Below, one piece after another: positions 5,404-19,232 of a stretch of 64,000 nucleotides of DNA (the stretch's first letter is position 1; each line of letters opens with the position of its first letter). A model generated the notes under the pieces. That model did not search any database and was not told where the DNA came from. It saw nothing but the letters and a program-made list of their open reading frames with translations. The stretch lies in the NCBI GenBank assembly GCA_040765825.1, contig JAXGRO010000001.1, positions 46,483 to 110,482 on the forward strand. Direction: 5' to 3'. Both the position numbers and the translations under genes were made by a program. Source of the DNA: Methanomassiliicoccales archaeon (GTDB taxonomy: Archaea; Thermoplasmatota; Thermoplasmata; Methanomassiliicoccales; UBA472).

Positions 5404-6168
5404 ATGATCAAGCGCACCTTCCTGCTTCTGCCGGGTATCGGCCAGGTCAAGGAGCGCAGACTATGGGAGTCGGGCGTTCTCTCCTGGGAGGAGTTCTCGG
5501 AGCGGAAGTGCCTGGAAGGCATCTCGGCCTGCCGGAAGCCCCTGCTGGACCGGGAGCTGGAACTGGTGCAGGATTCCTGGGAGAAGGGGAGGACGGAATA
5601 CTTCTCGCGCCTGCTGCCCAGCGGCCAGCACTGGCGGATGTACCGGCGGCTGAAGGAGGACGTCTGCTACCTTGATATCGAGACGGACGGGCTGGGGCCG
5701 GGCGCGGTGATAACCATGGTCTCCGTGCACCGCAACGGCGACACGGTCACCCTGACCAGGGGAATGGACCTCAACGCCGAGAGCCTGGGCTCCGCGCTCC
5801 GGGGAACAAAGATGCTGGTCACCTTCAACGGCAGCAGCTTCGACCTGCCCGTGATCGAGCGGGAGTTCCCCTTCACCGTTCCCCGGGTCCCGCACTACGA
5901 CCTCCGGCACGCCTGCCCGAAGGTGGGTCTGAGGGGCGGCCTGAAGCAGGTGGAGGTGCTCCTGGGGTACCGCCGCCCGCAGGAGGTGGAGTACGTCACC
6001 GGGGAGGAGGCGGTGTACCTTTGGCACCTCTGGCAGAAGAAGGGGAACGAGAACGCCCTGAAACTGCTGCGCCGCTACAACCAGGAGGACACCAGGAACC
6101 TGGAGCCGCTGGCGGAAGCGGTCTACGGACGCCTGGAGAAGGGGCTGCTCGAGAGGTGCGGTCAGTGA
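5404..6168 (+). CDS. RNase H-fold exonuclease-like protein (YprB/PF13482-like) with N-terminal HhH
   Basis: The start was trimmed to ATG 5404 (MIKRTFLLLPGIGQVKERRL). The TATA-like ggatattatatcg lies ~25 nt upstream. The Exo-I-like motif is CYLDIETDG, and NGSSFDLP and NQEDT follow. The stop overlaps the next gene (GTGA). Confidence 0.75.
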   Translation: MIKRTFLLLPGIGQVKERRLWESGVLSWEEFSERKCLEGISACRKPLLDRELELVQDSWEKGRTEYFSRLLPSGQHWRMYRRLKEDVCYLDIETDGLGPGAVITMVSVHRNGDTVTLTRGMDLNAESLGSALRGTKMLVTFNGSSFDLPVIEREFPFTVPRVPHYDLRHACPKVGLRGGLKQVEVLLGYRRPQEVEYVTGEEAVYLWHLWQKKGNENALKLLRRYNQEDTRNLEPLAEAVYGRLEKGLLERCGQ

Positions 6169-7709
6169 GCGGAAATCTGGAGGGGTTCCTGGAACGCGCC
6201 AGGTCATTGGCGGAGGTGGTCCGCTCCGCGGATTCGGTGGCGGTTGTCTCGCACATCGATGCGGACGGGATCACATCCGCGGCCATCGCGGTCCAAGCGC
6301 TCAAGCGCATGGGGATCCGCCACTCATTGCATTTCAAGAAGTCACTTGGGGAGGCGGAGGTCGACTCCATAGCGGACCTGGAGGAGGATCTGGTCTGGGT
6401 CTGTGACCTGGGCACCGCTTCCTTCGAACGTATGAACAGAAAGAGATGCGTGATCACAGACCATCATCAGTGCATTTCCAGTGGACAATCCCCTATGGAC
6501 CTTTACGTGTACCTTGACGGCATGCTGAACCCCGTTCTGTTCGGAATGAACGGATCTACATGCATAAGCGGGGCCGGTGCCACCTACTTCCTGGCCAGGG
6601 AGTTGGACCGCGCCAACAGGGACCTGGCATACTTGGCGATAGTCGGAGCGGTGGGCGACATGCAGGACCGCTCCGCCCACCGATTGGAGGGGGCATTGCA
6701 CGCCATGGTGCTGGAGGACGCCCGAGGGATGGTGGAGGTGGTCCCCAACGAACTTTCATTCTTCGGATGGGTGACCAGATCGGCCGCGGCCATGCTGGCC
6801 TTCTCCAATGAACTGAAGGACCTGGGATACCAGGATAGCGTCAAGGAGGTCTCCTCCCTGTTCTATGAGGCGGGCGTTTCGCTGAAGAGGTCCGGGGCTC
6901 CCCCAATGAAGGAGGGGAAGGGAGCTGTGTGGAGAAGTTGGTCCGAGCTCTCGCAGCCCGAAAGGAACATCATGAAGGTCACCCTGCGCATGCGCCTGGA
7001 GGAGCTGAAACTGGACTGCGAGGCCCTGGACCGGATGCTGGGCGAGGTGTATCTGTTCCCGGACCATCCTCCGGGGTCCCCCACCCGGGAAGCCAAGGAG
7101 TTCGCCACGCTGCTCAACGCCTCCGGTCGCTACATCCTCACACCGGATGGAAAGGGGGATGATGAGCGTGGGGACCTCATAGTGAACGTCTGCCTGAACC
7201 CCAAGGTGTACTCGGAATCGGCATTGCGGAACGTGGACAACCATAAGGTGCATATACGCGAGGGGGTGGAGAGCGTGGGCAGGGTGGATCAGATGTCCAA
7301 TATCCAGATCCTGAAGTCCAAGAACAACACCTATTCACTGAAGGTCAACGATACCATCCTCGGAATAATCGCCGGGATGGTCCTGGACCAGAAGCAGGAA
7401 AAGGGTGGCCTGGTGGTGGACTGCTGCAAGCCGATCGTGGCCTTCGCCGAGAGGCAAGGCTCAGCGGAGGCCGGCAAGGACCCCGAGGTCAAGGTCTCCA
7501 CCCGCATGAGAAGGGAGCTGACCAACAAAGGGATTAACCTGGGAAAGGCGGTCAGTGAGGCATCCTCGCAGGTGAAGGGAGGGGGAGGAGGTCACGACGT
7601 GGCCGCCGGCGCCAACATCCCGAAGAAGAAGATCAAGGCGTTCCTGGACGCGCTGGACCAGGAGATAGGCGCCCAGAAGGAGCGTTTCAGCTCATCAGGG
7701 CGACCATGA
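6165..7709 (+). CDS. RecJ-like DHH/DHHA1 phosphoesterase (archaeal RecJ/GAN family)
   Basis: It carries DHH motifs VVSHIDADGITSA, VCDLG and VITDHHQ, plus the DHHA1 motif GGGGHDVAAGA. I take GTG 6165 as the start, overlapping the upstream stop (GTG 6156 is an alternative). The track's N-terminal extension from 6021 overlaps the previous gene and was trimmed. Confidence 0.8.
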   Translation: MSGNLEGFLERARSLAEVVRSADSVAVVSHIDADGITSAAIAVQALKRMGIRHSLHFKKSLGEAEVDSIADLEEDLVWVCDLGTASFERMNRKRCVITDHHQCISSGQSPMDLYVYLDGMLNPVLFGMNGSTCISGAGATYFLARELDRANRDLAYLAIVGAVGDMQDRSAHRLEGALHAMVLEDARGMVEVVPNELSFFGWVTRSAAAMLAFSNELKDLGYQDSVKEVSSLFYEAGVSLKRSGAPPMKEGKGAVWRSWSELSQPERNIMKVTLRMRLEELKLDCEALDRMLGEVYLFPDHPPGSPTREAKEFATLLNASGRYILTPDGKGDDERGDLIVNVCLNPKVYSESALRNVDNHKVHIREGVESVGRVDQMSNIQILKSKNNTYSLKVNDTILGIIAGMVLDQKQEKGGLVVDCCKPIVAFAERQGSAEAGKDPEVKVSTRMRRELTNKGINLGKAVSEASSQVKGGGGGHDVAAGANIPKKKIKAFLDALDQEIGAQKERFSSSGRP

Positions 7710-10456: not shown

Positions 10457-10531
10457 GGCCGGGATGGGGTAGCCTGGTTATCCTTGGGGATTGTGGATCC
10501 CCGGACCCGCGTTCAAATCGCGGTCTCGGCC
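10457..10531 (+). tRNA. tRNA-His (anticodon GTG) with genome-encoded G-1
   Basis: The cloverleaf was read by eye. It has G-1 and the acceptor stem GCCGGGA/TCTCGGC. The D arm carries A14, G18G19 and A21. The anticodon stem is GGGGA/TCCCC with loop TTGTGGA, and the T arm is CCGCG-TTCAAAT-CGCGG. Discriminator C73 sits opposite G-1, the His identity element. No CCA is encoded. Confidence 0.9.
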
Positions 10532-11709
10532 CCTTCTTTTCCTATAACGATGTCGATGCCCCTCTCCAATATGGCCCTCTGTCTTTCCGATAGGGCCATT
10601 GGGTCCACCGTGACCAGCAGGATGGCCCCCTCCACCACGGCCATGTCCCGAAGCTGGCCCAGGAACTTCAGGACCCGGGTGATGTCGTTGTTGACCAGGA
10701 GGTATTCCAGGCCATCGATGGCAACCAGCGAGGGACCTTTCCTCAGGAACTCGGTGGTCATGTGCGTCAGCATCTGCAGGTTGCCGGGATGGACGTTGTT
10801 GGGGCCCGGCGTCTCCGCCAACCAGAGAAAGGGCGTCCTGGTGAGTTCGTAACGGGACCTCAGCTGGTCCGGGTGCGTCCGGCTTATGATCAGGGCGGGG
10901 AGCCCCTCTACCATGCGATTCAACAGGGCGTTGTACATGCCCTCCGGCCCCTTGGACTCGAAGAGATAGGAACGACCGGACTCCAGTTCAACCGAGGGGG
11001 CGGAATGGAGCGGGGCCTTCTCGCTGACCCTCGGAGGGACCAGCAGGTCGTAGCGCAGTATGCCGAAGGAGATGACCACCACCGAGACCAGCTCCCCCAG
11101 GCCGAACAGCCTGGGCATGTTCAGAACGGTGGCCGTGAGCACGATGAGGATGGCCATGTAGACCATGGGGAAGGCCAGGGAGAAGGTGAGCAGCAGGGCC
11201 TGCTTGGCGCCTCTCTGGTCCAGGCGGGGGAGCTTGCGCCGCAGGGATATGGTCATGAAGGTGGTGTATGCCATCATGCACAGGACCATGGCCGCATAGG
11301 GCCAGTTGGCCTCGGGTACCCAGCCGTGATCGTCCCTGCGCATCCCCCAGACGGTGAGCCCGGAAATGGCGGCGATGGTGGTGACCAGGATCCAGAAGGG
11401 GCGGCCGTTCAGCCATTTGAAGATCATACCGCTGTCATACGGCACCATGGCGGCCAGTCTATATCCCACACCCATCTCGATCACCAGCAGCAACACCAGC
11501 AACCGGAAGGTCCAGGCCGCGGCCGCCTCCCCGGTCAGGCTGTGCATGAGCATGTCAAGCAGGCTGCCGATGGCCACCAATATTGAGAACGCGAAGAAGA
11601 TGCGGTTCACCGAAGAGCCCGGGGCCCTGCTCAGCACAAAGGCTCCGAGAAGCAGCTCGGTCAGCGAGATGCCTATGAACAATGGTGTGTGGGGGCAGAG
11701 CTCTATCAT
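10513..11709 (-). CDS. Seven-TM membrane protein with C-terminal DUF835 domain
   Basis: The start was trimmed to ATG 11709 (MIELCPHTPLFIG) because the upstream part of the 509-aa ORF is antisense to rtcB. It has seven hydrophobic helices followed by a DUF835-like region (LIISRTHPDQLR...WLAE...DGLEYLLVNN...LLVTVDP). The last 19 nt overlap tRNA-His in antisense. Confidence 0.8.
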   Translation of the reverse strand: MIELCPHTPLFIGISLTELLLGAFVLSRAPGSSVNRIFFAFSILVAIGSLLDMLMHSLTGEAAAAWTFRLLVLLLVIEMGVGYRLAAMVPYDSGMIFKWLNGRPFWILVTTIAAISGLTVWGMRRDDHGWVPEANWPYAAMVLCMMAYTTFMTISLRRKLPRLDQRGAKQALLLTFSLAFPMVYMAILIVLTATVLNMPRLFGLGELVSVVVISFGILRYDLLVPPRVSEKAPLHSAPSVELESGRSYLFESKGPEGMYNALLNRMVEGLPALIISRTHPDQLRSRYELTRTPFLWLAETPGPNNVHPGNLQMLTHMTTEFLRKGPSLVAIDGLEYLLVNNDITRVLKFLGQLRDMAVVEGAILLVTVDPMALSERQRAILERGIDIVIGKEGAETAI

Positions 11710-11832
11710 TTCCGCCTCTGAAAGGATTCGCCCGCGATTATTTAATGGTGCTATATGCGGAAGGTGATGCGTGAGAACACGGTTTCCTATAAATGATGGA
11801 AGCTGCATGGGTTTTCCGCCGAGGATGAGGAA
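11710..11832. promoter_or_regulatory. Divergent promoter region (DUF835 gene / rtcB)
   Basis: For rtcB, ctataaat (11787-11794) lies 39 nt upstream of the ATG, with gaggatgagg as the SD. For the DUF835 gene, attaaataat (rc of 11737-11746) lies ~27 nt upstream of its ATG. Confidence 0.45.
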
Positions 11833-13287
11833 ATGAGCTGGAACGGACCCCTGGAAAAGGTCGATGACTATCGCTGGAAGATCCCCCGCACCTACAAGGA
11901 CTGCATGAACACCGACGCGATCGTCTTCGCCGACGAGAAGATGATCAGGACCATCACCTCCGACAACTCCCCGGAGCAGGCGGCCAACGTGGCCTGCCTT
12001 CCCGGGATTGTCGGGAACTCCATGGCCATGCCCGACATCCACTGGGGATACGGGTTCCCCATCGGCGGCGTGGCGGCCATGGACGCCGAGGAGGGGGTGA
12101 TATCACCAGGGGGCATCGGTTTCGACATAAACTGCGGGGTGAGGCTGATCTCCACCAACCTGAGGGAGTCGGACGTCGCCCCCAGGATAAAGGAGCTGAT
12201 CAACACCCTGTTCCAGAACGTGCCCGCTGGCGTGGGCTCCAAGGGCGTGGTGGACGTGGCCGCCAGCCAGATCGACCGCATCCTGGAGGAGGGTGCGGAG
12301 TGGGCGGTGGCCGAGGGTTTCGGCTGGGAGGAGGACCTGGACCGCACCGAGGAGAACGGGCGCCTGAAGATCGCCGACGCCTCCAAGGTCTCCGGGAAGG
12401 CCAAGCAGCGCGGGGTGCCCCAGGTCGGCTCCCTGGGCTCCGGGAACCACTTCCTGGAGGTGGACAGGGTGGAGAAGATATTCGACCCCCGGGCGGCCAA
12501 GGCCTTCGGGCTGGAGGAGGAGGGACAGATAACCGTCTCCATCCACTGCGGCTCCCGCGGCTGCGGGCACCAGATCGCCACCGACTACCTTCAGGTCATG
12601 GAGCGAGCGGTAAAGGGCAGCGGGCTGAAGCTGCCGGACCGCCAGCTGGCCTGCGCGCCGGTGAACTCCCGCGAGGGGCAGGATTACTATGCGGCCATGG
12701 CCTGCGGGGCCAACTACGCCTGGGCCAATCGGCAGATGATCATGCACTGGGTCAGGCAGTCCTTCGAGAAGGTGTTCTCCCGCAGCGCTGAGGACATGGA
12801 GATGGGCTTGGTGTACGACGTGGCGCACAACATCGCCAAGGTTGAGGAGCATCTGGTCGAGGGTGCGAGGCGCAAGGTGTACGTGCACCGCAAGGGGGCC
12901 ACCAGGGCCTTTCCGAGCGAGCATCCCGAGGTCCCGTCCATTTACCGCTCCGTGGGCCAGCCTGTGCTGATCCCCGGGGACATGGGCACCGGCTCGTATG
13001 TGCTGGTGGGGACCGAGCAGGCCATGAGGGAATCGTTCGGCTCCACCTGCCACGGGGCCGGCCGGGTAATGTCCAGGGAGGCGGCCATCCGTTCCTATTC
13101 CGTGAAGGCGATCACGCAGGAGATGGAGTCCAAGGGGATCTACCTCAAGGGGAGCACCCGGGACGGAATTCAGGAGGAGGCCCCGGGGGCCTACAAGGAC
13201 ATTGACGACGTGATCCGGGTGGTGGTCGGCGCCGGCCTGTCCAGGCCGGTGGCCAAGCTCACGCCCCTGGGAGTGATGAAGGGTTAA
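11833..13287 (+). CDS. rtcB: RNA-splicing ligase RtcB
   Basis: 484 aa with the RtcB hallmarks MPDIHWGYGFPIGG, GGIGFDINCGVR, GSGNHFLE and GDMGT. The length gives no sign of an intein. Confidence 0.95.
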   Translation: MSWNGPLEKVDDYRWKIPRTYKDCMNTDAIVFADEKMIRTITSDNSPEQAANVACLPGIVGNSMAMPDIHWGYGFPIGGVAAMDAEEGVISPGGIGFDINCGVRLISTNLRESDVAPRIKELINTLFQNVPAGVGSKGVVDVAASQIDRILEEGAEWAVAEGFGWEEDLDRTEENGRLKIADASKVSGKAKQRGVPQVGSLGSGNHFLEVDRVEKIFDPRAAKAFGLEEEGQITVSIHCGSRGCGHQIATDYLQVMERAVKGSGLKLPDRQLACAPVNSREGQDYYAAMACGANYAWANRQMIMHWVRQSFEKVFSRSAEDMEMGLVYDVAHNIAKVEEHLVEGARRKVYVHRKGATRAFPSEHPEVPSIYRSVGQPVLIPGDMGTGSYVLVGTEQAMRESFGSTCHGAGRVMSREAAIRSYSVKAITQEMESKGIYLKGSTRDGIQEEAPGAYKDIDDVIRVVVGAGLSRPVAKLTPLGVMKG

Positions 13288-15089: not shown

Positions 15090-15584
15090 TCACCTCTCGT
15101 CGAACTTCCATATCTTGTCGCCCACGAAGTGCAGGTTCTTGATGGCCTTACCGGGGGCCTTGGCGGCCATGACCTCCGCGGAGACCAGGGCCTTTCCGAC
15201 CGCCAGGGGGCGCTTGTGCGTGACGTCCCTGATCCACACCAGATCGCCCTCCCTGACCGCGGGGTCCACCTCCACTATCCCCGGGGCCATGACATCGGCC
15301 CCGTTGGTCACGTAGGGAACGGCCCCCATGTCCACGGTGACGTAGCGTTTGGAGGCCTTGCGCTTGAGCAGCCCGCGCACGGCCAGGAAGGGATGGCCTT
15401 CCACGATGATTCCCTCTATGACGTTATTCACGAACACCAGTTCGAAGTCCGGCCCCTCGGCGGTGTCCACGGTGTCCTTGGGGGTCAGGGGTTCGATCCC
15501 CAGCACCTCCACCATCGTCTCCGTGAGCGCCTTGAGCTCCTTCTCCCGCAGCCTCTTGCGCTTCCTGACCCTTATCTCGCTCAC
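15090..15584 (-). CDS. PUA-domain RNA-binding protein (COG2016, MCT-1/Tma20-like)
   Basis: The C-terminal PUA-like region is GADVMAPGIVEVDPAVREGDLVWIRD...PLAVGKAL. The track start (TTG 15632) gives an odd CCC-containing leader. I prefer GTG 15584 (VSEIRVRKRKRL), but the start remains uncertain. Confidence 0.7.
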   Translation of the reverse strand: MSEIRVRKRKRLREKELKALTETMVEVLGIEPLTPKDTVDTAEGPDFELVFVNNVIEGIIVEGHPFLAVRGLLKRKASKRYVTVDMGAVPYVTNGADVMAPGIVEVDPAVREGDLVWIRDVTHKRPLAVGKALVSAEVMAAKAPGKAIKNLHFVGDKIWKFDER

Positions 15585-15670
15585 GTCCTCGGTTATGCAA
15601 CAGCAAGCAATTATCTTTTTTGATGCCAGCAATTAGATAAATTCATAAGCCCGCAAATAAATTGGAGGAC

Positions 15671-16861
15671 ATGAAACTCCCCTTGGTGGCCACCCGTTTG
15701 ATCATCATCGCCTTCAAGCTGATGGTGGCGGCGATCGTCGTTCTGAGCATACTGCCGCTGCTTACCGGAGGCATTGGGCTGGACATGGACGATGGCAGCG
15801 AGGGTGGAATGACGCTCGACGGGAGCGTCATCCGCGTACAGATGCCGATAACCGTCCGCAATGATGGGACATTCGACATCAACGACCTTCAGGTGTCCTT
15901 CATATTCATGAACGAGGACGGGGACGTGCTGGCGGAGAGCGAGGGAGAGCAGATGGACATACCCGCCGGGCGGGAGACCGAGATCACCATAGGATTGGCC
16001 CTGGACCTTCTCGATCTGGAGAGGCAGGTCCGTTCCGACCTCATATTCAACGGCACGGAGATGATGTTCGATGCCACGATCTCCGCGAAGTACACCCTGG
16101 ACATGGTTCAGCTCAGCGTGGAGGTCGGAAGCGACATGGAATGGGGCCCCTTCGTGAGCGACCTGCAGGTGGAGGCCTGGAACGCCCAGGCCATGGAGGA
16201 GGGCGGCGAGCGGTACATGTACGTTCCGTACTCCTTCCAAGCCGATGATGTGCTGGCCGGGCTTGAAACGCTCACCATCACCGAGTACAGGGACGAGAGC
16301 GGATATTCCAGCAATATCACCCAATCCGTCCAACTGTCGCCGCAGGTCAACGAGATGGCCAAGATCCCCCTTTCGCAGGAGGCTTACAACCGTTACATCA
16401 ACGGGACCGCCAATGCCACCGTGCGCACCACCCTGTACGTCCTGGACTGCTCCACCTATGACCAGGAGGGCCTGGTCGCCGGAGGGGGCGGCGGTGGAGG
16501 CGGGGCGGACCCGGTCAGGGACCTGAATGTTCAGCTGTTCAACTCGTACCTGCAGGAGATGGGCGGTGAGTATTACGTGGTGATGCCGTACAGCTTCAAC
16601 ACCGATCCGGCCTATCAGGGCCAGGAGGCCCAGGTGCTCATCGAGTACTGGGACGAACATGGGTTCACAACCAACACCTGGCAGACGGTCAACCTGTGGG
16701 ATGGCAGCTGGTACGAACCCTGGCTGCCCCTATCCCAGGAGGCGTATGACCGGGTGCTCAACAACGATGAGCTGGTACACGTCCGGGTGACCGTGTATCA
16801 TCAATCGTGGAACACCTTCGTCGAGGAATCCTATCACGAGCCGTGGGGGGTGGGCCCATGA
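15671..16861 (+). CDS. Membrane-anchored extracytoplasmic protein with tandem 120-aa internal repeat, unknown function
   Basis: ATG 15671 is preceded by GGAGG, and an N-terminal TM anchor follows. PYSF (nt 16226 and 16586) and PLSQEAY (nt 16367 and 16727) both recur exactly 360 nt apart. The two repeats are joined by a Gly8 linker (16481-16504). Confidence 0.75.
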   Translation: MKLPLVATRLIIIAFKLMVAAIVVLSILPLLTGGIGLDMDDGSEGGMTLDGSVIRVQMPITVRNDGTFDINDLQVSFIFMNEDGDVLAESEGEQMDIPAGRETEITIGLALDLLDLERQVRSDLIFNGTEMMFDATISAKYTLDMVQLSVEVGSDMEWGPFVSDLQVEAWNAQAMEEGGERYMYVPYSFQADDVLAGLETLTITEYRDESGYSSNITQSVQLSPQVNEMAKIPLSQEAYNRYINGTANATVRTTLYVLDCSTYDQEGLVAGGGGGGGGADPVRDLNVQLFNSYLQEMGGEYYVVMPYSFNTDPAYQGQEAQVLIEYWDEHGFTTNTWQTVNLWDGSWYEPWLPLSQEAYDRVLNNDELVHVRVTVYHQSWNTFVEESYHEPWGVGP

Positions 16862-18018
16862 ACCTCGGGGAGTTCGACAGGAAGCACATCTCCCCGGTCA
16901 AGGGAGCTATCACCGCCGCGGTGCACGCCGTGGTGTACCTGGCGATACCGTACATGGTGCTGACGTTCGTCCTGATCATGCTCGCCGGCCGGGATGGTCC
17001 GGCCATCGTGGAGGACCTGCTGAGGGAGATGCAGGCCCTGGTGATCGTCTTCGGCATCCTGCTCGCCGTACTGGGGTTCTTCAAGGGAGCGTACCCCAGG
17101 GGAAGCTATTCGCGATTCACCTTCGCCATAACCGCGTCGGTGCTGGTCATCGTGTACGTCTTCTCCCTGCTGCTGAATGGCCGCACCGAGGAGGTCATCG
17201 CCAGGGAGGCCTTCGAGCTGGACCTGTACTCGATTTTCGCGCTCTACTTCTTCCCGGCCCTGCTGGCGGTGCTGATGCAGTTCGGCGAGTTCGTCGATCA
17301 CCGCCGTCCCTTCCTGGAGAAGGAGGGCAAGGTGCCGGCCATGGAGAGGGAGGACCCCGATGGCCATCGCTTCTACCATGACTTCCGGCCCAGGTACGGC
17401 TCCCTGTTCAACGGCTTGAAGCTGGCCAGGAGCACCCTGGTCGGTTTCGTGATCATTCCCCTGGTCATACTGATCCTTCTCCAGGCAGGGCTCTCATCCC
17501 TGAACGTGGAGGAGGTGGACTCCATGGTCTCCAACCTGGACGACATCAGCTCCTACATGGTCCTGCTCGGGGTCCCCATGTCCGCCCTGGCCTTCTTCAA
17601 GGGGTTCTACCCCAAGGGTTCCGTCTCCCGCTTCATCCCGGCCGTGGCCATGGTCCTCATCGCCCTGTACTGGATATGGCTGCTGGGCATGGGAGGGCAG
17701 TTCGTCTTCGATTCGATAGAGGAGATATCCATCGAGCTGGACTTCTCCGGCCTGCTCCTGCTGATAATGGCCGGAACGGCCATCTGGATAGTTTACTACG
17801 TCCTGGAGCTGCTGCTCTATCGCAGGGAATGGAGGGAGGCGGGCTTCCCCAAGGACCTGCGGTCCCAGGAGAGCCGCAGGGAACGGAAGCTCAGGAAGGC
17901 CGAGGCCGTACTGGCGGCCGAGAAGAAGCGGACGGAGGACGCACAGGACGCCGAGGAAGCTCCGGAGAACTCCAAGGAGGAGGCCGCCACCCCGGATCAG
18001 GAGAGCAGGGAGGCGTAG
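16858..18018 (+). CDS. Polytopic membrane protein with internal duplication and charged C-terminal tail, unknown function
   Basis: ATG 16858 overlaps the upstream stop (ATGA). LGFFKGAYPRGSYSRF and LAFFKGFYPKGSVSRF lie ~172 aa apart, each inside a multi-TM module. The tail is Lys/Glu/Arg-rich and the gene ends in TAG. Confidence 0.75.
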   Translation: MNLGEFDRKHISPVKGAITAAVHAVVYLAIPYMVLTFVLIMLAGRDGPAIVEDLLREMQALVIVFGILLAVLGFFKGAYPRGSYSRFTFAITASVLVIVYVFSLLLNGRTEEVIAREAFELDLYSIFALYFFPALLAVLMQFGEFVDHRRPFLEKEGKVPAMEREDPDGHRFYHDFRPRYGSLFNGLKLARSTLVGFVIIPLVILILLQAGLSSLNVEEVDSMVSNLDDISSYMVLLGVPMSALAFFKGFYPKGSVSRFIPAVAMVLIALYWIWLLGMGGQFVFDSIEEISIELDFSGLLLLIMAGTAIWIVYYVLELLLYRREWREAGFPKDLRSQESRRERKLRKAEAVLAAEKKRTEDAQDAEEAPENSKEEAATPDQESREA

Positions 18019-19232
18019 AAGTCCAATATCTGGGACATCACCGTGTCCGGGTGGTAGCGTTTCAGGACCTCCTCCCCGGCCATGACCGTCCTCTCCCGGA
18101 GGCCGGGATCGTCCATCAGAAGTTCGAGCTTCTTCGCCAGGTCGAAATGGTCCCCGTTGCGGAAGGGGATCCCGGCGGCGCCGAGTATGCTGGCCGATGA
18201 GCCGCTGTCCGAGACGACCATGGGCAGATGATAGGAGAGGGCCTCGAGTATGGTGCGCGGGAACGGTTCTGGCCAGAGGGCCGGATGGACGAAAATGTCG
18301 GCCATGCCGTAGTAGCGCCCGGTCTCCTCCTTCTCCATGAACCCGGTGAATATGACCCTCCCCTCCAGGCCCAGCTGGTCCACCAGCCTTTTCAGCTGGG
18401 GCTCGTAGTCGCCCTTGCCCACCAGATACAGGATGCTGCCATCATGCAGCTCGGCGAAGGCCTTTATTAGCACCTGCAGGCCCTTCTCCACCTCCAGCCT
18501 TCCCACGTAGAGGATGATCTTCTTGTGCTTTGAGTCCTCCGGCCTTTCCGCGACGGAGCTGAGGCCGGGATCGAACATGTTGGGGATCAACCGTATGCGC
18601 TGGGCTTGATATCCTGCGTCGAGATAGCACTGCCGGGTGGCCTCGGACAGGGCGATGTAACCATCGGCCTTCCGGGAGAGGCGGTGCAGCATCTCGAACT
18701 CCATCCAGTGTATGGGCATGAAGGCCCTCATCTTCAGGGGGCCGGGGCGGCGCAGGGAGCAGGAGAGGGTGTCCAGGGGGCCGCAGCCGGCGCATTCCCC
18801 CTCCACGTAGCGGCTGGGATTGGTGCATATGGGGGCCAGGTTGTTCAGGGTGGCGGTGACCTTCATCCCGTGCCTGCGGGCGTATCGCACCGCCGCGGGC
18901 AGCTGCTGAGTGTTGTAGACGTGGATGATGTCGCAATCCGGCCTTCGCTGTGATAGCTCCCTGAAGGCAAGGCGGTTCAGGCCCAGGAGGGTGCGGGAGG
19001 TGCGTAGGTAACGGGTCTCCCCCATCTCCCCCTTGCGCGCAGGCAGATGATCGCCATTGAAGGCCCAAACGTCCGTGGGCACCCCCCTGGCCCTCAGCCC
19101 CTCTACCAGCAGGCTGCAGCTGAAGGCGCAGCCTCCGGTGTAACGAGGAGGGAAATCCGGGGTGATGACCAGCACCTTGAACGGGGGGTGGTTGCCTTCC
19201 AGACGAACACCTTTCCAGGGGGTGATGTCCAT
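17997..19232 (-). CDS. Glycosyltransferase, GT4 (GT-B) family
   Basis: 411 aa. The C-terminal EPFPRTILEALSYHLPMVVSDSGS is the GT4 E-x7-E region. Its 3' end converges on and overlaps the previous gene by 22 nt. Confidence 0.85.
   Translation of the reverse strand: MDITPWKGVRLEGNHPPFKVLVITPDFPPRYTGGCAFSCSLLVEGLRARGVPTDVWAFNGDHLPARKGEMGETRYLRTSRTLLGLNRLAFRELSQRRPDCDIIHVYNTQQLPAAVRYARRHGMKVTATLNNLAPICTNPSRYVEGECAGCGPLDTLSCSLRRPGPLKMRAFMPIHWMEFEMLHRLSRKADGYIALSEATRQCYLDAGYQAQRIRLIPNMFDPGLSSVAERPEDSKHKKIILYVGRLEVEKGLQVLIKAFAELHDGSILYLVGKGDYEPQLKRLVDQLGLEGRVIFTGFMEKEETGRYYGMADIFVHPALWPEPFPRTILEALSYHLPMVVSDSGSSASILGAAGIPFRNGDHFDLAKKLELLMDDPGLRERTVMAGEEVLKRYHPDTVMSQILDFYASLLS

Follow-up and report, generated by a model that had tools for sequence, protein, structure and literature searches.

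Two overlapping genes of a methanogenic archaeon raise a simple question: do their products belong together and, if so, what would such a pair be for? The genes, here called A and B, lie in a 64,000-nucleotide stretch of DNA (the window) from a Methanomassiliicoccales archaeon (contig JAXGRO010000001.1). An earlier note, made from the letters of the window alone, had described them as a dedicated two-component cell-surface module of no recognisable family, possibly with pseudo-twofold symmetry in both partners. We find that A and B are a dedicated, cognate and co-inherited membrane pair, and we set out below what each partner is made of, where the pair occurs and which roles it might have. Positions are those of the window unless a locus (L number) is named; retrieved proteins carry P numbers.

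A and B are inherited and duplicated together

The two genes and the sequences that start and join them, all on the plus strand, are as follows.

15671-16861, plus strand: gene A, 396 aa, an acidic signal-anchored protein with a predicted beta-sandwich ectodomain (open reading frame (ORF) listing and translation)
16858-18018, plus strand: gene B, 386 aa, encoding a polytopic membrane protein in which two four-helix units stand in tandem ahead of a predicted cytoplasmic, Lys/Glu/Arg-rich tail
15633-15669, plus strand: region upstream of gene A with AT-rich, TATA-like stretches (TTAGATAAAT at 15633-15642), a putative promoter
16845-16861, plus strand: A/B coupling junction, with a G-rich Shine-Dalgarno (SD)-like run, GGGGGGTGGG, at 16845-16854 within the last codons of A

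This layout, including the ATGA overlap at 16858-16861 in which the B start codon ATG begins at 16858 and the A stop codon TGA occupies 16859-16861, is as the earlier note had given it. Gene A has its own SD-like site, GGAGGA at 15664-15669, one base before its ATG; a sigma-70 promoter and terminator scan is not applicable to archaeal DNA. Among 36 junctions compared, 21 are NTGA overlaps and 3 are TGATG overlaps, with a full range from an 8-nt overlap to a 13-nt gap, and a G-rich SD-like run is usual inside the last codons of A, which may partly account for the conserved E-x-W-G tail of the A protein.

At 31 of 33 species-level loci the ORF directly upstream of the B-family ORF, on the same strand, belongs to the A family, and the same order is found for the distant single-unit members at L010, L047 and L048 and for the four-unit members at L050 and L051. 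Several genomes carry two A-B pairs, either in tandem (L040, L050) or with a pair placed away from the SepF and PUA genes in a different context. At L040 (4000-8966) the two pairs stand side by side and flank a PUA gene; at L050 (1594-8097) they are adjacent, and both B genes are four-unit forms (835 and 698 aa). Pairwise distances among A proteins track those among B proteins (r = 0.93) and the clustering of the two families is congruent. Two pairs in one genome diverge deeply (27% identity for A, 34-37% for B), and each of them is 63-75% identical to its own orthologue in another genome. Since second copies are kept paired in other contexts and the partners diverge together, the pair duplicates and evolves as a unit. 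This co-duplication and co-divergence is the strongest evidence here that A and B act together.

In compact archaeal genomes an overlap of four bases is nothing unusual, and A and B could on that ground be unrelated syntenic neighbours whose overlap is incidental. We regard this as extremely improbable, because the pair is intact in second copies elsewhere, the partners co-diverge and the junction is conserved across the 36 loci. The earlier claim of a dedicated two-component module is upheld by gene order, junction and co-diverged paralogous pairs alike.

B is built from an undescribed four-helix membrane unit

Gene B divides into the following parts.

16867-17349, plus strand: B unit 1 (aa 4-164; positions 2-163 of the local unit hidden Markov model (HMM))
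17077-17118, plus strand: helix 2-3 loop of unit 1, predicted cytoplasmic, FFKGAYPRGSYSRF; conservation 0.82; 3 K/R, 0 D/E
17377-17853, plus strand: B unit 2 (aa 174-332; local unit HMM positions 2-158)
17593-17634, plus strand: helix 2-3 loop of unit 2, predicted cytoplasmic, FFKGFYPKGSVSRF; conservation 0.93, the highest in B
17857-18015, plus strand: C-terminal tail (aa 334-386), charged, low-complexity, predicted partly helical; conservation 0.27

The tandem duplication that had been noticed in B is borne out: the motif FFKG[AF]YP[RK]GS.SRF occurs at aa 74 and 246, 172 aa apart, and the two halves are 26% identical over 101 aa (E 3e-10). The tail is charged, as had also been said, with 12 K/R and 15 D/E in aa 334-386. 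An AlphaFold2 model from 27 sequences (mean predicted local distance difference test (pLDDT) score 84, predicted template-modelling score (pTM) 0.77) has eight long helices in a 4+4 arrangement, together with a short beta-hairpin (aa 281-295) and a helix at the C-terminus. Loop charges obey the positive-inside rule, the helix 2-3 loops having three K/R and no D/E and the outer loops being rich in D/E, which fits a topology in which the termini of B and both ends of each unit would be cytoplasmic. The outer loops are short (4-20 residues) and B has no cysteine. Conservation peaks in the two loops listed above, where F246, K248, G249, F250, Y251, P252, G254, S255 and R258 of unit 2 are invariant, and is lowest in the tail. 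The cell-surface label of the earlier note therefore fits A and not B, which would add little to the surface: its outer loops do not exceed 20 residues, and its best-conserved segments are the cytoplasmic loops.

With a B profile we searched 1.84 billion representative proteins exhaustively by HMMER, obtained 200 clusters at E <= 0.001 and used a local HMM of the unit of about 155 residues to mark the units in each protein retrieved. This recovered 302 units, distributed as follows.

One-unit proteins: 102
Two-unit proteins: 78
Three-unit proteins: 10, possibly truncated four-unit genes
Four-unit proteins: 11

The start of P0113, a three-unit form, matches the start of the second unit of P0111, which suggests that three-unit forms may be truncated four-unit genes. 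At L012 the B gene is split at the linker between units into overlapping ORFs at 6001-6540 (179 aa) and 6494-7087 (197 aa), which are either two genuine single-unit genes or the product of an assembly frameshift. All named hits of the B profile are from Methanomassiliicoccales, including Methanomethylophilaceae and Candidatus Methanoplasma, as are all 34 loci of a genome scan made on one genome per species (GTDB) with the B alignment and two strict motifs, a number that is a lower bound. A profile search with the single-unit alignment, in which the word filter was saturated, returned only Methanomassiliicoccales proteins.

Over the 302 units the signature is F3, G8, G13, P28, G64, F-x-x-G-x-Y-P-K-G-S-x-S-R (72-84), G106, D120, E142 and R147, most of it at the cytoplasmic interface. 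The best-conserved positions are P28, in helix 1, and G80, R84 and R147, which lie with Y77 and E142 at the cytoplasmic interface. No conserved polar network was found in the membrane core of the unit across this set. D147, H170 and D175, invariant in the two-unit forms, had suggested an enzyme role for B. We set this aside because none of the positions that reach 60% conservation over the 302 units is a histidine. Of the acidic positions, two persist: E142, where helix 4 ends on the cytoplasmic side, and D120, whose conservation is moderate.

The same survey bears on a transport role, in which the fused four-helix units of B would make up a pore or carrier with pseudo-symmetry, and A would bind or gate from outside the cell as an accessory subunit. 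The parallel 4+4 internal duplication, the compact and confidently modelled bundle and the tight coupling with a single-pass partner would suit such a role, and in small transporters identical units are often fused in varying numbers. We nevertheless consider it quite unlikely: the membrane core holds almost no conserved polar or charged residues, Pfam, NCBIfam, PDB sequence profiles and Foldseek gave no convincing transporter-family match, and the pairing of a one-repeat A with B proteins of one, two or four units (described below) leaves no fixed subunit geometry.

Searches for a known relative of B gave little. Pfam and PADLOC yielded nothing for window B and NCBIfam only the TIGR03025 hit treated below, while its relatives have in Pfam and NCBIfam weak matches below the curated cut-offs, none of them convincing. 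PDB sequence-profile searches with the B and single-unit alignments returned nothing below E 0.1, and the best Foldseek matches of the B model had E 0.5 (PDB) and 0.2 (BFVD), with template-modelling (TM) scores of at most 0.25. No informative domain was found fused to the long B forms. Two candidates were considered and rejected. The polyprenyl glycosylphosphotransferase model TIGR03025 scored 16.7 bits against a cut-off of 295 (E 0.003), over model positions 14-119 of 445; the match covers just the N-terminal membrane region and is therefore one of membrane-segment composition. MARVEL (PF01284) left window B unmatched and gave sub-threshold matches in 6 of 27 relatives (best 30.7 bits against 32.8), which align B positions of about 58-160, helices 2-4 of unit 1, to model positions 14-118. 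With the MARVEL helices placed where we take them to be, B helix 2, running from outside to inside, lands on the first MARVEL helix, which runs from inside to outside; as they are wrong in both register and orientation, we treat these matches as hydrophobic noise. Database names were of no more help: P0129 is called 'cell envelope integrity protein TolA' by NCBI, for which a Pfam scan of that protein gives no support, and P0282 'type VI secretion system component VasK' by JGI, and both names look like artefacts of the low-complexity tail or of membrane segments.

The B unit is thus an undescribed four-helix membrane unit of about 155 residues with no recognisable family in the searched libraries. 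As a working analogy it may be set beside the tetraspanin, MARVEL and CD20-type scaffolds of eukaryotes, which likewise have four helices and both ends in the cytoplasm, and the A-B pair beside those scaffolds with Ig partners, the likeness being a single-pass partner with a beta-sandwich ectodomain. No homology to any of these scaffolds was found, however, and B lacks both cysteines and the large cysteine-rich EC2 loop of tetraspanins with its CCG motif.

A carries a probable, divergent LEA_2 domain followed by a repeat of a second type

Gene A, the anchored partner, divides as follows.

15677-15766, plus strand: N-terminal transmembrane helix (aa 3-32), a helix in the AlphaFold2 model
15809-16144, plus strand: domain 1, a predicted LEA_2/WHy-like beta-sandwich (aa 47-158), with an N-G-T sequon at aa 127-129
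16154-16474, plus strand: domain 2, the first repeat copy (aa 162-268), with PYSF, PLSQEAY and a lone cysteine, C260
16481-16504, plus strand: Gly8 linker between the repeats (aa 271-278)
16514-16837, plus strand: domain 3, the second repeat copy (aa 282-389), absent from 272-aa orthologues

The repeats seen by eye in A proved to be real. PYSF occurs at aa 186 and 306 and PLSQEAY at aa 233 and 353, each pair exactly 120 aa (360 nt) apart and written with different codons, and the copies joined by the Gly8 linker are 38% identical over 114 ungapped aa (E 1e-23), with a probability of 99.8% (E 1.4e-28) in a profile-profile comparison. Aligned two-repeat homologues have five to nine glycines (G5-G9) at the position of the linker, and 272-aa orthologues lack the second repeat wholly. 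Domains 1 and 2 are not significantly similar to each other in the A alignment, with a weak cross-match in one distant member. The A search yielded 44 homologue clusters, and every named one is from Methanomassiliicoccales.

An AlphaFold2 model from a 22-sequence alignment (mean pLDDT 76.8) consists of the membrane helix and three beta-sandwiches, domain 1 being all-beta save for a single helix at aa 118-127. Foldseek placed the model among generic tandem Ig/FnIII/macroglobulin-type chains in the PDB, 173 of them at E <= 0.001, the top matches having probability 1.0 and E of about 1e-7 with TM-scores of only 0.17-0.32 and identities of 6-14%. As far as the model goes, this shows a generic fold class and no family: by structural similarity A falls, at low TM-scores, in the class of tandem Ig-like/FnIII beta-sandwich ectodomains. 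None of the top 50 matches was identified as a solved LEA_2 structure, and a PDB sequence-profile search with the A alignment returned nothing below E 0.1.

The likeness of A to LEA_2 that the earlier note had seen by eye corresponds to a sub-threshold Pfam match (PF03168; 21.1 bits, E 4.3e-4, against a gathering score of 25.4 bits). Matches to LEA_2 at E < 1 were found in 20 of 22 A relatives, the best at 1.6e-5; for four orthologues (P0013, P0014, P0022 and P0025) PF03168 is among the precomputed hits, and NCBI lists one orthologue as 'LEA type 2 family protein'. On these profile matches we take the first ectodomain of A to be a divergent LEA_2 domain, to which a repeat of a second type has been added; domains 2 and 3 have no Pfam match. 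The statement that neither protein belongs to a known family thus stands for B, through Pfam, NCBIfam, PDB and Foldseek, and probably gives way for A. The likeness to LEA_2/WHy proteins rests in the profile matches of domain 1 across the A family, and A also resembles the plant proteins of the NDR1/HIN1 type, which have a membrane anchor at the N-terminus ahead of a beta-sandwich. A differs in adding one or two beta-sandwiches of the second type and, in the window, in scoring below the Pfam cut-off.

This kinship invites a role in stress protection, with A acting like LEA_2/WHy proteins at the membrane surface during water or ionic stress and B serving as its membrane receptor. LEA_2 function is itself undefined, however, and we know of no LEA_2 protein with an obligate polytopic partner or one resembling B. 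The LEA_2 matches in 20 of 22 A-family members speak for such a role, weak as the match is. The pair also holds a conserved position across the sampled families, which suggests a housekeeping rather than a conditional role. Bacterial WHy/LEA_2 proteins have been tied to stress tolerance (PMC5570939). On balance we judge this explanation very unlikely.

The ectodomain of A is acidic (pI 4.05; 61 D/E against 14 K/R), and F126, N127, G128 and T129 are invariant in the A alignment, a conserved N-glycosylation sequon. The lone C260 (16448-16450), in a hairpin of domain 2, is invariant in 22 of 22 aligned relatives and has no equivalent in domain 3; it is a conserved, unpaired and predicted extracellular cysteine. 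The predicted signal-anchor helix is present in the AlphaFold2 model at aa 3-32, in line with the earlier note. Its mean column conservation (0.80) exceeds that of domains 1, 2 and 3 (0.70, 0.63 and 0.36). A membrane helix that outscores the ectodomain in conservation is unusual for a cleaved signal peptide and suggests that the helix, far from being disposable, has a conserved partner; it therefore probably stays in place as an anchor.

The duplications in A and B are independent events

The numbers of A repeats and B units combine as follows.

Two A repeats with two B units: combination seen
One A repeat with two B units: combination seen
One A repeat with one B unit: combination seen
One A repeat with four B units: combination seen

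Because a one-repeat A occurs with B proteins of one, two and four units, the A and B duplications are independent events. The matched pseudo-twofold symmetry that had been proposed for both partners falls on this evidence: it is a coincidence of the lineage of the window and not a design feature.

The neighbourhood of the pair and a possible link to cell division

Pfam confirmed the flanking genes named in the earlier note: genes for SepF and the universal archaeal PUA protein lie upstream on the minus strand, and a GT4 glycosyltransferase gene is convergent downstream, followed by UDP-glucose dehydrogenase and nucleotidyltransferase genes. Further upstream in the window are an HD-domain protein and RtcB, the latter by similarity to RtcB genes of related loci. 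The block of HD, SepF and PUA next to A-B is kept across families of the order, with sepF about 650 bp upstream of A-B on the opposite strand.

This proximity raises the prospect that B is an anchor for the division ring or cytoskeleton like haloarchaeal CdpA, tethering SepF/FtsZ or another filament, with A as its extracellular partner. In CdpA (HVO_0739) the N-terminal membrane domain (aa 17-149) has four segments and leads into a disordered linker in the cytoplasm, and diverse archaea have 'CdpA-like' proteins that differ in their number of helices, a set defined by a JackHMMER profile and BLASTP at E 1e-5 from HVO_0739 (PMC12126565). B shares with CdpA a four-helix domain of about 130-150 residues and a cytoplasmic region, in an organism with FtsZ and SepF, the membrane domain of CdpA being similar in size to a B unit; the best-conserved surfaces of B are cytoplasmic, and its charged tail stands at the end. 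B differs in having two units and an extracellular partner gene, whereas CdpA has no such gene and no beta-sandwich partner has been reported for it. B also departs from the CdpA layout of a four-helix domain, a disordered linker and a small conserved C-terminal domain, since its tail is poorly conserved (0.27) and no conserved C-terminal domain follows. Second A-B pairs lie far from sepF, L048 has A-B but no sepF in the block, and the adjacency may be mere order-level synteny. No archaeal division family appeared in the Pfam and NCBIfam scans of B. Taken together, we rate a division anchor as distinctly improbable.

In several lineages the pair is closely followed by glycan genes (for GT4 or a flippase, UDP-glucose dehydrogenase and a nucleotidyltransferase). 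Around the second pairs are genes for a small HD protein, SnoaL, an SDR and an M3 peptidase, none of which pointed to a function.

A structural role at the cell surface is tentatively favoured

Thin sections of one Methanomassiliicoccales isolate show a thin membrane alone, without a surface layer (S-layer) or cell wall (PMC5011839). Because cultured relatives lack both, we take a structural role as the most likely, and we favour, tentatively and with somewhat less than even confidence, the reading that A and B are two subunits of a structural membrane-surface complex specific to Methanomassiliicoccales. B would be its integral-membrane platform of four-helix units, a fused pair in the window and one or four units in other lineages. 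A would be translated in step with B from the same mRNA, held in the membrane by its conserved helix and docked on the B helix bundle, and would project outside the cell an acidic, probably N-glycosylated stalk, made of the LEA_2-like domain and then one or two domains of the second type. The complex would act as a scaffolded surface glycoprotein that coats or organises the naked membrane, while the conserved cytoplasmic face of B would tie it to something intracellular. The B scaffold may associate laterally, with any number of fused units tolerated.

Several observations weigh against a structural surface complex. Conservation in B peaks on the cytoplasmic side, which a purely surface-coat role does not account for; the LEA_2 match of window A is under the Pfam cut-off; the glycan genes differ from lineage to lineage or lie on the opposite strand, and second pairs stand among unrelated genes. 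A might also be cleaved after its helix and released.

A bolder form of the structural reading, which we think unlikely, is that the B unit founds a new family of four-helix scaffolds assembled in side-by-side arrays. Together with the A glycoproteins these would form a layer, mechanical as well as superficial, that replaces the S-layer in Methanomassiliicoccales, convergent with tetraspanin/MARVEL webs and their Ig partners and possibly tied to the division machinery through the cytoplasmic face of B. Assembly in such arrays would explain why one, two or four units per chain all work.

Other features of the surrounding loci

Beside the pair in the window, the GT4 gene (17997-19232, minus strand) overlaps the 3' end of B with its own 3' end by 22 nt (17997-18018), an arrangement also found in L006-L009, L013, L014, L020 and L022. 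The PUA gene (15090-15632, minus strand) has an ambiguous start, its longest ORF running to 180 aa from a TTG and identical or related loci being called at 164 aa; the choice sets the divergent intergenic region with gene A at 38 or about 86 bp. Elsewhere a small protein of 78-89 aa is encoded on the minus strand between PUA and A (L001:4389-4625, L010:4824-5087 and L012:4685-4954). It is a zinc-ribbon in both loci scanned, L001 and L010, and the gap in the window is too small for the gene.

More distant lineages have a third conserved gene downstream of A-B, for a cytosolic, cysteine-rich protein of about 240 aa with the motif C-x-K-C-x-x-S-W-D-x-G-R-G-C-I-G-x-F-G-P (L010:6563-7288, L048:5569-6291, L001:8554-9279, and also L029, L033, L035, L043-L046, L050 and L051). 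It has no Pfam or NCBIfam match and was not found in the window by tblastn; a PadR regulator follows it in L010, L050 and L051.

Upstream, the RtcB gene of the window (11833-13287, 484 aa) is without an intein, whereas that of L010 (1-2357, 953 aa) bears one (Intein_splicing, LAGLIDADG). The gene at 10513-12042 on the minus strand encodes a membrane protein whose C-terminal domain is DUF835 (E 3e-31); its listed ORF overlaps the start of RtcB by about 210 nt, and its true start is probably further in. The order helix-turn-helix (HTH) regulator, DUF835, RtcB, HD, SepF, PUA is kept in L003-L005.

Implications for the Methanomassiliicoccales

Nothing described in the libraries searched, whether family or system, corresponds to the B family or to the A-B arrangement. 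What is new is confined to that undescribed family and gene pair; new biology is not demonstrated. The four-helix unit is a natural example of one membrane module that occurs as a monomer, a fused dimer and a fused tetramer.

Methanomassiliicoccales are methyl-reducing methanogens of human and animal guts, the rumen, wetlands and digesters, and we know of no account of how cells without a wall or S-layer hold their shape, present a surface or divide. At least some members of the order have neither, and the A-B pair, which turned up in every sampled lineage of the order in which we detected a B-family gene, duplicates together and had no detectable relative outside Methanomassiliicoccales in our searches, is a concrete candidate for a lineage-specific component of their envelope. 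If it is exposed at the surface, the pair could be of use as a surface marker, or as a vaccine or inhibitor target for methane mitigation.

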